A stretch of 4,451 nucleotides of DNA from a phage, in the sequence record PZ049720.1. One strand, 5' to 3'. The notes under the pieces are model-generated. The model was not told the DNA's origin. It did not search any database and was given only the letters and a program-made list of their open reading frames with translations. Both the position numbers and the translations under genes were made by a program. This document shows, piece after piece, positions 1 through 4,451 of this stretch. Position 1 is the first letter of the stretch. Every line of letters starts with the position of its first letter.

Positions 1-28
1 CATGTGAGCCGGCTTCATCACCTGGCAG

Positions 29-400
29 TTGACCCAGACCTTCTGGGTCGGCGGCCTGTGGTTGCTGCAGTTTCTGGTGCTGCCTGCGCTTGGCCGGATC
101 GGCCTGGCACCGCTACTGGTCGAGGAAGTCGCCGGGAGTCTGCGTCCTCTGATGGTCGGCTTCGCCGCGTTCTGCGTGGCGCTGCAGGCGCTGGTGTTGG
201 TCCAGTCTGTCGGTCTTCGCGGTTTGTGGCGCGATGTGCGGGGGCAGCTGCTGCTGGCGGTGATGGCCCTGGCCGGCACTCATCTTTTGATGAATGCCGG
301 CTGGTTCGAGTCCATCTACTGGGCCAGTTTCAGTGTTCTGGCGATGGCGCTGGGCGGTTTGATGCTGGTATTGCAGCCCGTTCCCGGGCGAGAGCAATGA
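29..400 (+). CDS. Small integral membrane protein of unknown function (about 4 predicted TM helices, 123 aa), family not identifiable by eye
   Basis: ORF 29..400 translates to four hydrophobic stretches (TFWVGGLWLLQFLVLPALGRIGL; LMVGFAAFCVALQALVLVQSV; LLLAVMALAGTHLL; SIYWASFSVLAMALGGLMLVL) with strong GC3 codon bias. The only start option is TTG at 29 because an in-frame TGA sits at 5-7. It converges on yhbY. Confidence 0.5.
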   Translation: MTQTFWVGGLWLLQFLVLPALGRIGLAPLLVEEVAGSLRPLMVGFAAFCVALQALVLVQSVGLRGLWRDVRGQLLLAVMALAGTHLLMNAGWFESIYWASFSVLAMALGGLMLVLQPVPGREQ

Positions 401-406
401 CTGACG

Positions 407-424
407 GCGGCAGACTGCTGCCGC
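407..424. terminator. Hairpin between convergent genes (7-bp stem GCGGCAG/CTGCCGC, 4-nt loop ACTG); possible bidirectional terminator
   Basis: Perfect inverted repeat 407-413 / 418-424 in the 31-bp gap between the membrane-protein stop (398-400) and the yhbY stop (432-434). It is followed on the + strand only by a short GGTTT, so the U-tract is weak. Confidence 0.3.
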
Positions 425-431
425 AGCGGTT

Positions 432-743
432 TCACGCCTGGAAGCGATGGATGTTCGACAGCTGTTTGTTCGGCTTCGGATTCCTGCGATAGACCAGCGC
501 CATTTTGCCGATGGTCTGCACCAGTTCGCATTTTCCGATTGCGCACAGCTCTTCCATCAGGGCGCGGCGATCTTCGCGCTCGGTAAGGCGGAACTGGATC
601 TTGATCAGTTCGTGATCGTTCAGGGCTCGCTCCAGTTCGGCTTGAACGCCTTCGGTCAGCCCGTTTTCGGCAACGATCAGCACCGGTTTCAGATGATGGC
701 CGATGGACTTGTACTGTTTCTTCTGCTCGTTGGTGAGCGGCAT
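432..743 (-). CDS. yhbY: YhbY/CRS1-domain RNA-binding protein (ribosome assembly factor), 103 aa
   Basis: Translation MPLTNEQKKQYKSIGHHLKPVLIVAENGLTEGVQAELERALNDHELIKIQF...VQTIGKMALVYRR matches the recalled E. coli YhbY pattern (KQKQHLKGLAHPLKPVVLLGSNGLTEGVLAEIEQALEHHELIKVKI...VQVIGKTLVLYR). Length and the orientation opposite to ftsH fit the conserved gammaproteobacterial arrangement. Confidence 0.85.
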   Translation of the reverse strand: MPLTNEQKKQYKSIGHHLKPVLIVAENGLTEGVQAELERALNDHELIKIQFRLTEREDRRALMEELCAIGKCELVQTIGKMALVYRRNPKPNKQLSNIHRFQA

Positions 744-1357
744 ATTTCGACCCTTGCGTCAGAACCCTTGAAAAACGGCGGCTAGTGTAACCGAGAGGTG
801 CAAGGCCGCACAGGTGAGCGATCGGTTTGGCAGGCTTTAGAGCCAGTCTGTCGTGGTGAACCTTGTGATCGCAAACGCAGCCCCAATATGAGAGCTGTGG
901 GGACTGCCAGCCAGTCGTGACGCAGTGCTTTCTGCGAAACGGCGCGCGATTCGGTCTCCGGATACTGCATTCGGCTCGGTTTTTTTGATCAAGATATTTC
1001 AGGATGCGCGCTCTACGCGTACTTGAAAGCGTTGCGGCAGGCGTTCGAGAGCATGTAGACAAGCAAAGCCGCGGTGGCCTCGCGACCGCTCCAGTGCGCA
1101 ATATCTGCTTGTCCATGGCTTTACGGGTGTGCCGAACGAACAGACCCGTTTGTGCGAAAAGGCCGGTTTGGCGGTCTATTCATGCGGGCGTCGGCCAATG
1201 GACGGCCCCGTACGGCAAGGACTAGGCTGTTTCATGGGGTTACAGACCGACTGCCTGTTCCAGTGCGTTGTGTAGTAAGTTAGGCCGAGCAACCAACCGG
1301 CCGTCATGCGGGCCCGCGGACACGGGTTTGCTCCAGAGGGTAGTTAATTTGAACGAC
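744..1357. promoter_or_regulatory. 614-bp non-coding divergent spacer between yhbY and ftsH; presumed to hold both promoters and the ftsH 5' leader
   Basis: Stop codons occur in all three + frames in the stretches translated by hand. The only ORFs are short with odd composition. An AT-rich island with a T7 run lies at 976-1000. Weak sigma32-like elements (CTTGTGA 862-868, CCCCAATAT 881-889) are present. No confident -35/-10 pair could be assigned. Confidence 0.4.
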
Positions 1358-3271
1358 ATGGCAAAAAACCTGATCCTGTGGCTGATCATCGCCGCCGTCC
1401 TGGTCACGGTGATGAACAACTTCTCCAGCCCGAGCGAGCCGCAGACGCTGAACTACTCGGACTTCCTTGAGCAGGTCAAGGAGGGGCGCGTGGAGCGCGT
1501 GACCGTCGATGGTTTTGTCATCATCGGCAAGCGTAGCGACGGCGACACCTTCAAGACCATTCGCCCTGCGATCCAGGACAACGGCCTGATCGGCGATCTG
1601 CTCGACAACAATGTGCTGATCGAGGGCAAGCAGCCTGAGCAGCAGAGCATCTGGACACAGCTGCTGGTGGCCAGCTTCCCGATCCTGGTGATCATCGCCG
1701 TGTTCATGTTCTTCATGCGGCAGATGCAGGGCGGTGCTGGCGGCAAGGGCGGGCCTATGAGCTTCGGCAAGAGCAAGGCTCGCCTGCTCTCCGAGGATCA
1801 GGTCAAGACCACCTTCGCTGACGTCGCCGGTTGCGACGAGGCCAAGGAAGAAGTGCATGAGCTGGTGGAGTTTCTCCGCGACCCGGGTAAGTTCCAGCGT
1901 CTCGGCGGCCGTATTCCGCGTGGCGTGCTGATGGTCGGTCCGCCCGGTACTGGTAAGACGCTGCTGGCCAAGGCGATTGCCGGTGAGGCGAAGGTGCCGT
2001 TCTTCACCATCTCGGGTTCGGATTTCGTCGAGATGTTCGTCGGTGTCGGCGCCAGCCGGGTCCGCGACATGTTCGAACAGGCCAAGAAGCACGCGCCTTG
2101 CATCATCTTCATCGACGAGATCGACGCGGTCGGTCGTCATCGTGGTGCCGGCCTCGGCGGCGGGCACGACGAGCGCGAGCAGACCCTCAACCAGTTGCTG
2201 GTGGAGATGGATGGCTTCGAGATGAACGATGGCATCATCGTCATCGCGGCTACCAACCGTCCCGACGTGCTCGATCCGGCGCTACTGCGTCCGGGCCGCT
2301 TCGACCGGCAGGTGGTCGTAGGTTTGCCGGACATCCGCGGTCGCGAGCAGATTCTCAAGGTGCACATGCGCAAGGTGCCGGTCAGCGAGAACGTCGAGCC
2401 GGCGGTCATCGCCCGCGGTACGCCGGGTTTCTCCGGTGCGGACCTGGCCAACCTGGTCAACGAGGCGTCCTTGTTCGCTGCGCGGGCCAACAAGCGCATC
2501 GTCGAAATGCGCGAGTTCGAACTTGCCAAGGACAAGATCATGATGGGCGCCGAGCGCAAGTCCATGGTCATGTCCGAGAAAGAGAAACTCAATACCGCGT
2601 ATCACGAGGCTGGGCACGCCATCGTCGGGCGCGTGGTGCCGGAGCATGACCCGGTCTACAAGGTTTCCATCATTCCTCGCGGGCGGGCGCTGGGTGTCAC
2701 CATGTTCCTGCCGGAAGAGGATCGCTACAGCCTGTCGAAGCGCGCACTGATCAGTCAGATCTGCTCGCTGTTTGGTGGTCGAATCGCCGAGGAAATGACC
2801 TTGGGCTTCGAAGGCGTCACTACTGGCGCTTCCAACGACATCATGCGCGCCACTCAGTTGGCGCGGAACATGGTGACCAAGTGGGGCTTGTCGGAGAAGC
2901 TTGGCCCGCTGATGTATGCCGAAGAGGAGGGTGAGGTCTTCCTCGGTCGCAGCGCTGGCAGTCAGCACGCCAACGTTTCCGGCGAGACCGCCAAGCTGAT
3001 CGATGAAGAGGTGCGCAGCATCATCGATCACTGCTATGGCACCGCCAAGCAGATACTCACCGAGAACCGCGACAAGCTGGACATGATGGCCGAAGCACTC
3101 ATGAAGTACGAAACCATCGATGCACCGCAGATCGACGACATCATGGCGGGCCGTCCACCGCGCGAACCGCGTGACTGGGAAGGTGGCGGTACCGGCACGT
3201 CCGGGACGCCGGCCGTGCCGGATGACAATCGTCCGCAGACGCCGATTGGTGGTCCCGCCGGGGAGCATTGA
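1358..3271 (+). CDS. ftsH: ATP-dependent zinc metalloprotease FtsH (AAA+ membrane protease), 637 aa
   Basis: N-terminus [15 protein letters not shown] is the conserved FtsH start. Walker A GPPGTGKT, Walker [10 protein letters not shown], second region of homology [20 protein letters not shown], and zinc-binding HEAGHA are all present, with two N-terminal TM segments. The ORF track start at 1268 (TTG) is an upstream in-frame extension; ATG 1358 was chosen by homology. TTG at 1349 with AGAGGG 8 nt upstream is a possible alternative start. Confidence 0.96.
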
Positions 3272-3319
3272 GGGTAGCGTCGATCGAACATTCATCGGTC
3301 GGCTGTCAAAAGGCTGTAT

Positions 3320-3349
3320 CCAGAAGGGGCGCATAGGCGCCCCTTCTGG
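3320..3349 (+). terminator. Strong GC-rich hairpin (perfect 13-bp stem CCAGAAGGGGCGC / GCGCCCCTTCTGG, loop ATAG) 49 nt after the ftsH stop; likely intrinsic terminator, attenuator or mRNA-stabilising stem-loop
   Basis: Perfect inverted repeat 3320-3332 / 3337-3349 seen directly. The downstream sequence TGTAAATTGTC is only moderately U-rich. On the minus strand the stem is followed by TTTT, so it may act in both directions. Confidence 0.5.
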
Positions 3350-3439
3350 TGTAAATTGTCCACCCCGTTGTGCCATGGTGGTGCAGCTGGCGTGGATCGC
3401 CTGCCCAGGGCGTCCGGCCTGAACGTACAAGGCTTGTGA

Positions 3440-4291
3440 ATGAACAACTCGTCTTCACCTGCTCGACTGGTCTGCGGCAGTCGAGTCCTCGATCTTTCCC
3501 GTCCCCATGTCATGGGGATTCTCAATGTCACCCCCGATTCCTTTTCCGATGGTGGTCGCTTCGCCGAGCGCGATGCCGGCATTGCGGCACGCCCGGGCGA
3601 TGGTTGCAGCAGGGGCTACGCTGATCGATGTGGGGGGGAGTCGACCCGTCCGGGCGCGCGTTCAGTTTCGCCGACCGAGGAGCTGGAGCGGGTTGCCCCC
3701 ATTGTCGAGGCCATTGCTGGCGAGCTGGATGTCGTGATCTCGGTCGACACCTCGACGCCTGCGGTGATCCGCGAGTGCGCGCGGCTGGGCGCCGGTCTGA
3801 TCAACGACGTGCGCTCGCTACGACGGGATGGTGCGCTGGACGCAGCGGCCGACACCGGTTTGCCGGTCTGTCTCATGCACATGCGCGGCGAGCCTGGGGA
3901 TATGCAGGACGATCCGCGCTATGACGATATCACTGCGGAAGTTGCGTCGTTCCTAGGTGAGCGAATGGCGGCGTGCGCAGCGGCAGGCATTCTGGCAGAG
4001 CGCATCGTGCTCGACCCGGGGTTCGGCTTTGCCAAGACGCTGAATCACAACCTCGTGCTGTTCAAGCATATGGAAAAGCTTCACCGACTGGGGCGTCCGC
4101 TGCTGGTGGGCGTGTCGCGCAAGAGCATGATCGGTGGCGTGCTGGGGCGTCCGGTGGGTGAGCGGCTGTATGGCAGCCTTGCGCTGGCGGCCCTGGCCGT
4201 CAGCAAGGGGGCGCAGATCGTGCGGGTGCACGATGTGGCCGAGACGGTTGACGTAATTCGAATGATCGCTGCAGTGCAGGCGGCAGAGTAG
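3440..4291 (+). CDS. folP: Dihydropteroate synthase (FolP), 283-aa uninterrupted ORF, with an internal compensating frameshift pair that puts about 18-20 codons out of frame relative to homologs
   Basis: N-terminal [23 protein letters not shown], then GGESTRPGA...EELERV...ISVDTS...GLPVCLMHM...[10 protein letters not shown]...[12 protein letters not shown]...IVRVHDV all match DHPS motifs. AAGG lies 8 nt upstream of the ATG. Codons 3578-3637 read [18 protein letters not shown] in frame, whereas the +1 frame (3579-3638) reads the expected [20 protein letters not shown]. Confidence 0.85.
3578..3638 (+). other. Out-of-frame segment inside folP, bounded by an apparent +1 insertion (GCCGGC, 3575-3580) and a -1 deletion in a 7-G run (3632-3638)
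   Basis: Hand translation of both frames. Frame 0 gives the DHPS-like [20 protein letters not shown]. The ORF frame gives non-conserved [18 protein letters not shown]. Flanks on both sides are conserved in the ORF frame. Confidence 0.7.
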
Positions 4292-4301
4292 GGAAGACAC
4301 C

Positions 4302-4451
4302 ATGACTAGAAAGTATTTCGGCACCGACGGCATTCGCGGACATGTTGGGCAAGCGCCTATTACCCCGGATTTCATGCTCAAGCTGGGCTGGGCGGCAGGC
4401 ATGGCCTTCCGCAAGCAGGGCAAGTGCCGCATCCTGATCGGCAAGGACACC
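4302..4451 (+). CDS. glmM: Phosphoglucosamine mutase GlmM, 5' partial (first 50 codons; continues beyond the window)
   Basis: Translation [50 protein letters not shown] matches the conserved GlmM N-terminus ([10 protein letters not shown]). Shine-Dalgarno GGAAG at 4292-4296 lies 5 nt before the ATG. Position downstream of folP matches the conserved ftsH-folP-glmM order. Confidence 0.92.

Follow-up and report, generated by a model that had tools for sequence, protein, structure and literature searches.

An apparent TTG start at a sequence edge is an internal leucine codon of a conserved gene downstream of greA

Introduction

Where does the gene begin whose small hydrophobic product is encoded at the left edge of this DNA? 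The stretch analysed here, called the window throughout, is 4451 nt long and opens with C ATG TGA GCC GGC TTC ATC ACC TGG CAG TTG ACC. The first-pass annotation, made from the letters of the window, described a hydrophobic ORF bounded by an in-frame TGA at 5–7 and forced to start at TTG 29; it considered both a genuine TTG-initiated small membrane protein, whose N-terminus would be very short, and the truncated end of a longer gene. Its reading of the letters is accurate: the TGA lies in frame with the ORF (29 − 5 = 24); the codons of positions 8–28 (A G F I T W Q) include no ATG, GTG or TTG; and direct reading gives TTG 29–31 as the first canonical start in the window. From there the ORF runs to the TGA at 398–400 and specifies a hydrophobic product of 123 aa. 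That annotation made no mention of an in-frame ATG at 2–4, which directly abuts the TGA. We compared the locus with its relatives at the levels of DNA, codon usage and predicted protein structure, and we report here that TTG 29 is not the native start and that the gene very probably begins beyond the left edge of the window.

Results

Layout of the window and its close relatives

The exact YhbY protein encoded in the window (Table 1) is on record for Stutzerimonas (Pseudomonas) stutzeri A1501 (CP000304) and for five other genomes; the gene order is identical in all of these, and greA lies directly upstream of the hydrophobic ORF. The yhbY gene served as the anchor in the search for the source locus. 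The comparison covered 87 loci, made up of 80 species-representative loci and seven S. stutzeri loci (L001–L007, of which L001 is A1501). Positions 8–4451 of the window are 98.2–99.8% identical to the seven S. stutzeri loci by BLASTN, and all of these alignments start at window position 8. A1501 and its sister strains (L001–L006) carry, between greA and yhbY, a 143/144-aa gene with 98.7–99.8% nucleotide identity to the window from position 8 onwards; the neighbours greA, yhbY, a decayed rlmE, ftsH, folP and glmM are common to these strains and the window, whereas the window has CATGTGA at its tip where they have CGCGCGC.

Several long ORFs lie off-frame or on the opposite strand, among them 4..492 (+), 316..1116 (−) and 2282..3430 (−); the first of these is GTG-initiated, specifies 162 aa and overlaps the membrane-protein gene. 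Their translations are rich in Arg, Ala and Gly, as expected off-frame in GC-rich DNA, and these alternative frames are not genes. Scanned in full against Rfam at E ≤ 1, the window gave no match.

Table 1. Features of the window, with coordinates in window numbering
Feature	Position	Strand	Remarks
Terminal heptamer CATGTGA	1..7	+	ATG 2–4 and TGA 5–7 in frame; homologous to no relative
Codons 14–143 and stop (398–400) of a conserved 143-codon DUF4149-like gene (probable)	8..400	+	Native 5′ end off the window
Predicted helix 1, in-window part	8..97	+	Residues 10–43; holds A-G-x-I-x-W-Q-L-x-Q-T-F-W-V-G-G
Hydrophobic ORF	29..400	+	Frame open from 8
Internal Leu codon TTG, Leu21 of the 143-aa protein	29..31	+	Not the native start
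Predicted helix 2	110..211	+	Residues 48–81
Predicted helix 3	236..295	+	Residues 90–109
Predicted helix 4	320..370	+	Residues 118–134
yhbY (CRS1/YhbY RNA-binding protein)	432..743	−	Pfam PF01985 CRS1_YhbY, E = 1e-25; convergent downstream neighbour
ORF-free region, ~600 nt	about 785..1357		rlmE remnant at 798–1128 (+)
ftsH	1358..3271	+	
folP	3440..4291	+	
glmM, start of	from 4302	+	

Protein sequence is conserved upstream of position 29

The A1501 locus shows what the frame looks like when it is followed leftwards: TTG TCG AAG TCC GCC ATA TCT GAT CGG CAA CCC GCG CGC GCC GGC TTC ATC ACC TGG CAG TTG, where the last codon corresponds to TTG 29 of the window. In L001–L006 the gene is called at 143–144 aa, from a TTG inside greA that makes the two genes overlap by 23 nt. 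A protein search returned 964 homologs, mostly of 132–156 aa, many of which are named “DUF4149 domain-containing protein” and a few “MFS transporter” or “putative copper export protein” (annotation names in each case).

The alignment of orthologs extends in frame well to the left of position 29. Of the 80 species-representative loci, 78 match in tblastn from the first residue of the query, i.e. from window position 8, and the orthologs share the motif R-A-G-x-I-(S/T)-W-Q-L-(A/T)-Q-T-F-W-V-G-G with synonymous variation at third positions; W6, L8, Q10, T11 and W13–G16, with window position 8 as the origin of the numbering, do not vary among 29 aligned sequences. Many orthologs begin with M-R-A-G, two codons upstream of position 8. 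In 87/87 loci the frame remains open, without an in-frame stop, over the 12 or more codons that precede position 8. The short spacer between the greA stop and position 8 measures 16, 19 or 22 nt in these loci, always 1 mod 3, and indels in it therefore keep the frame.

The individual codons tell the same story (numbered with 0 at window positions 8–10). Codon −3 is Pro in 73/87 loci (mainly CCG, CCC, CCA and CCT); codon −1 is Arg in 77/87 (CGC 31, CGG 22, CGT 15, CGA 8); codon 0 is Ala in 86/87 (GCC 24, GCG 24, GCT 23, GCA 15); codon +1 is Gly in 78/87, written with four codons; and codon +5 is Trp, TGG, in all 87. Conservation at the protein level spans codons −1 to +6, all upstream of position 29, and the supposed very short N-terminus gives way to codons conserved as coding sequence.

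Codon +7, at window positions 29–31, is Leu in 86 loci and Val in one, spelled CTG in 77, TTG in nine and GTG in one. As CTG occupies this position in 89% of orthologs, it is not a conserved initiation codon. Even seven near-identical strains disagree on it: three have TTG, three (L004–L006, 98.7–99.1% identical to the window) have CTG, and L007 has GTG.

This comparison establishes the identity of the gene, the conservation of its frame and the lack of conservation of TTG 29 as a start. The idea of a genuine small membrane protein initiated at TTG 29 does not survive the in-frame alignment of orthologs upstream of that codon; the gene is already annotated in relatives, and the forced TTG start is not a real feature. 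The window ORF very probably corresponds, as judged from the sequences compared, to the final 130 of the 143 codons of an ordinary conserved gene whose start lies to the left of the window. The other suggestion of the first-pass annotation, the end of a longer gene, is right in that all relatives have the longer gene (143–144 aa in the S. stutzeri group, at least 132 aa elsewhere) and that its 5′ end lies off the window; a possible disruption of the gene there is taken up in the Discussion.

A predicted four-helix membrane protein

We modelled the 143-aa ortholog P0002, which is 98% identical to the window translation without indels, with AlphaFold2 and an alignment of 54 sequences. The model has a mean pLDDT of 80.7 and a pTM of 0.71, and it shows four long helices (Table 1). 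Positions 8–28, which had been taken as a leader preceding the first helix, encode conserved residues that belong to helix 1 in this model, and Leu21, the residue of TTG 29, lies 11 residues inside it. On the model, a start at TTG 29 would cost three turns of helix 1 as well as the conserved Arg13 at its presumed cytoplasmic end.

The family to which the protein belongs is less sharply defined. The translation of window positions 8–397 scores 12.7 bits against Pfam DUF4149 (PF13664), below the gathering cut-off of 24.6 bits (E = 0.15), with residues 11–91 matching profile positions 4–82 of 102; sub-threshold matches to PF13664 were obtained for 28 of 29 orthologs, the best at E = 3.6e-4. At Pfam E ≤ 0.01 and NCBIfam E ≤ 10 the ORF was assigned to no family. 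The Foldseek hits in the PDB were all generic helical bundles, none below E = 0.1 (best E = 0.6), and a literature search on bacterial DUF4149 members found nothing. Several features are shared with DUF4149 (TMEM205-like) proteins: the size of about 130–150 aa; the four predicted helices, in that the predicted P0002 model has the architecture of a small polytopic protein with about four transmembrane helices; and the names of the orthologs, many of which NCBI and UniRef assign to DUF4149 (as annotation rather than as tests). The window protein itself stays sub-threshold and is at best a divergent member. An assignment to DUF4149 is plausible but weak on these sequence grounds; a description as a small polytopic inner-membrane protein, conserved in its position downstream of greA in Pseudomonas, Stutzerimonas, Azotobacter, Aquipseudomonas, Serpens and Zestomonas, is supportable.

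The C-terminus of the protein varies among close strains. A1501, L002 and L003 (near 10361) lack one C of a CCCGGG run and end in ...PGESND* (144 aa), and the window, with C at 383, has the consensus ending ...PGREQ*, as do L004–L007 and most orthologs; the 143-aa form is found in L004–L006. We considered the extra C at 383 as a sequencing error and rejected this, given that PGREQ is the ending of L004–L007 and the family consensus and that the deletion lies in A1501, L002 and L003.

A candidate native start embedded in greA

Each of the 87 loci has a canonical start at codon −2 or −3 or further upstream, and two arrangements account for most of them. In 66 loci, a TTG lies within greA, 12–14 codons upstream, in frame and with the frame relation preserved; it is formed by the Ile-Val codons (aTT Gtc) of the GreA tail EYEIVEVRH. 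In 31 loci, there is a canonical start codon at −2, which is ATG in 23. The two arrangements tend to replace one another: among the 21 loci without the embedded TTG, codon −2 is a canonical start in 20 and the remaining one carries GTG at −3, and 55 of the 66 loci with the embedded TTG lack a start codon at −2 (Fisher p = 6e-11 for the anti-correlation over 87 loci, a statistic that ignores phylogeny). At the greA Ile codon from which the TTG derives, ATT is used in 58/87 loci (67%), compared to 20% (233/1187) of other greA Ile codons, a comparison that likewise ignores phylogeny. Both the anti-correlation and the enrichment of ATT would be expected under selection for an embedded start.

We propose the following arrangement for the S. 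stutzeri group. The reading frame of the gene native to these strains runs on upstream of the window; translation would start at the TTG made by the greA codons ATT-GTC (Ile-Val), and this TTG, which precedes window position 8 by 39 nt and lies 32 nt beyond the first base of the window, is most likely the native start, as inferred from the aligned loci. The gene would then share 23 nt with the end of greA and encode the 143-aa product. In other Pseudomonas and Stutzerimonas lineages translation may instead start at the ATG two codons upstream of position 8 (M-R-A-G...). TGA 5–7 takes the place of the conserved Arg codon, and TTG 29 encodes Leu21, within predicted helix 1.

Neither a promoter-like site nor a convincing terminator was found in the interval between greA and the membrane-protein gene, and for this reason we infer that the gene is probably co-transcribed and translationally coupled with greA, as what would be the last gene of a carA-carB-greA transcript.

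Ribosome-binding signals add little to this picture. Calculated Shine-Dalgarno (SD) pairing energies set none of the candidate starts apart across the 87 loci, the upstream TTG scoring little better than internal control codons. No SD signal singles out the upstream TTG, which counts against our preferred start. The upstream TTG of L002 gave −3.2 kcal/mol, similar to ftsH (−3.3 kcal/mol) and folP (−3.0 kcal/mol) and short of yhbY (−4.3 kcal/mol) and glmM (−5.8 kcal/mol). For TTG 29 of the window, the best anti-SD pairing was only −1.7 kcal/mol, the weakest of all starts tested, and this offers the proposed TTG 29 start no ribosome-binding site worth the name. Also counting against the upstream start is L007, in which a gene caller took the GTG at the window-29 position as the start of a 123-aa product; some strains may have an internal start at this position.

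The terminal heptamer does not match any relative

The stop that gave rise to the forced-start reading lies within the first seven bases of the window, and these behave unlike the rest. CATGTGA differs at 4 of 7 positions from CGCGCGC, the sequence of all seven S. stutzeri loci, whereas the other 4444 bases show 0.2–1.8% differences to the same relatives; by our own estimate, the chance of at least four differences in 7 nt at 1.8% divergence is about 4e-6. Given how improbable such a mismatch is under ordinary divergence, the bases that hold the stop must be either spurious or non-homologous. All seven close strains have CGC (Arg) where the window has the TGA, and upstream of it their frame is open.

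Searches for the junction elsewhere were negative. The exact junction 28-mer was absent from genome_contigs (species-representative genomes) and from metagenome_contigs (JGI metagenomes); the JGI metagenome_contigs contained no match to a degenerate ATG-TGA-GCN-GGN ortholog pattern; and window positions 1–430 gave no megablast match to plasmids. We also noticed that CATGTGAGC resembles ACATGTGAGC, a stretch that we take to lie beside the pUC/pMB1 origin; a match of 7–9 nt is not significant, and this likeness was set aside and given no weight.

Sequence quality elsewhere in the window is relevant here. Within folP, the window has one extra base at 3576–3578 (GCCGGC, where relatives have GCCGC or GCGGC, a polymorphic site) and lacks one base at 3625–3631 (a run of G7, where relatives have G8). 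The two changes compensate each other and leave 18 conserved dihydropteroate synthase (DHPS) codons garbled; both are absent from the six close relatives L001–L006, and an exact look-up found no record of the window’s folP product. The pair is most likely a sequencing or consensus error. It indicates that the sequence quality of the window is imperfect, which bears on how far its first seven bases can be trusted.

Taken on its own, the heptamer has a somewhat better than even chance of being a sequencing or assembly error at the end, or the tip of a chimeric contig; a real junction or lesion is the other candidate, with a substantial chance that falls short of even. TTG 29 is not the native start under either of these. 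If the source reads ...CATATCTGATCGGCAACCCGCGCGC directly before GCCGGC upstream of the window edge, the heptamer is an end artefact; if CATGTGA is well covered and continuous with the end of an insertion sequence (IS) or other foreign DNA, the disruption is real.

Discussion

Our comparison suggests that the hydrophobic ORF is the greater part of a conserved gene that starts inside the 3′ end of greA. This arrangement resembles translationally coupled, overlapping bacterial gene pairs, in which the downstream start likewise lies inside the 3′ end of the upstream gene; the frame relation is kept in 87/87 loci. It differs from them in lacking a strong SD sequence. Classic coupled overlaps have the form ATGA or TGATG, and the 23-nt overlap proposed here is longer. 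The start appears to have switched between lineages, from the greA-embedded TTG to an ATG 11–12 codons downstream or the reverse, and the greA Ile codon, ATT or ATC, varies synonymously with whichever start is present.

The alternative with the best standing is a real disruption of this gene, in which the end of an IS or transposon, a rearrangement, a recombination breakpoint or a clustered mutation to ATG-TGA lies upstream of position 8. The gene would then be a 5′-truncated pseudogene without its first 13 codons, silent or weakly re-initiated at TTG 29, which is available as a fallback start. Homology to all relatives stops sharply at position 8, as it would at an insertion or rearrangement junction, and draft contigs often break at repeats; moreover, compared to the lineages that read C ATG CGA GCN (L031, L042 and L052), the window differs only by CGA>TGA, a single transition. 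Set against this, 7 nt are too few to recognise any element; the junction 28-mer and the degenerate pattern are missing from the contigs searched for each; folP shows other signs of sequence error within the same window; and a junction exactly 7 nt from the edge would be a coincidence unless the window is itself a contig that breaks there. We regard a real disruption as possible, a serious minority candidate.

A native start at TTG 29, with a 123-aa protein and TGA 5–7 as the natural upstream boundary of its frame, is very improbable. In the window as given there is no other canonical start, and the domain would survive the shorter N-terminus, as the weak match to DUF4149 sets in only near residue 11 in the 130-aa translation; the L007 gene caller took the equivalent GTG and obtained an identical 123-aa product, which an exact look-up found on record in L007 only, a different strain. 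Much more speaks against it: the codon is CTG in 77/87 loci, three near-identical strains among them; the residues encoded upstream are conserved under synonymous variation; a stop at the position of the TGA occurs in 0/87 loci; the SD-like pairing is the weakest of the starts tested; and three turns of predicted helix 1 would be lost together with a conserved Arg.

Weakest of all, and barely worth entertaining, is the notion that ATG-TGA 2–7 is a functional minimal “start-stop” element controlling re-initiation at TTG 29: the in-frame ATG does abut the TGA and sits at the codon used as a start in 23/87 orthologs, but the arrangement occurs in no relative and in no metagenome contig searched, it would destroy conserved residues of the protein, and it depends on seven terminal bases of doubtful authenticity. 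It is equally far-fetched that an authentic heptamer has replaced the native Met/Arg region by ATG-TGA and that re-initiation at TTG 29 yields a clipped but functional DUF4149-like protein; if this were true, it would be a natural case of a membrane-protein gene rescued or regulated by a start-stop.

That this gene begins beyond the window edge is of little biological weight, and the lesson is one of annotation practice: where a stop and a forced rare start fall within a few bases of the edge of a window or contig, relatives should be checked before gene structure is read from them. Calling TTG 29 as the start here would clip 20 residues, three turns of helix 1 included, off a conserved protein. 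A modest by-product of the work is comparative evidence for a lineage shift of the gene’s start.

Loss of rlmE from the yhbY-ftsH slot

The slot between yhbY and ftsH is occupied in most Pseudomonas by rlmE (ftsJ, the 23S rRNA Um2552 methyltransferase); window positions 785–1357 contain no ORF. In tblastn, P. paraeruginosa RlmE matched window positions 856–1128 with its residues 115–206 (33% identity, E = 7e-7) across in-frame stops, and a second match covered 798–1055 in a different frame. In-frame stops together with matches in two frames indicate a decayed rlmE pseudogene. Within the 80 species-representative loci, rlmE is intact in most, and it is undetectable or fragmentary in several lineages: L009–L019 (S. 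kunmingensis, S. chloritidismutans, P. songnenensis and related loci) and, further, L020, L035, L049, L050, L053, L055, L056, L059, L065, L073, L075, L077 and L087. This distribution suggests that rlmE has been lost repeatedly from the yhbY-ftsH slot, a statement that concerns this locus only.
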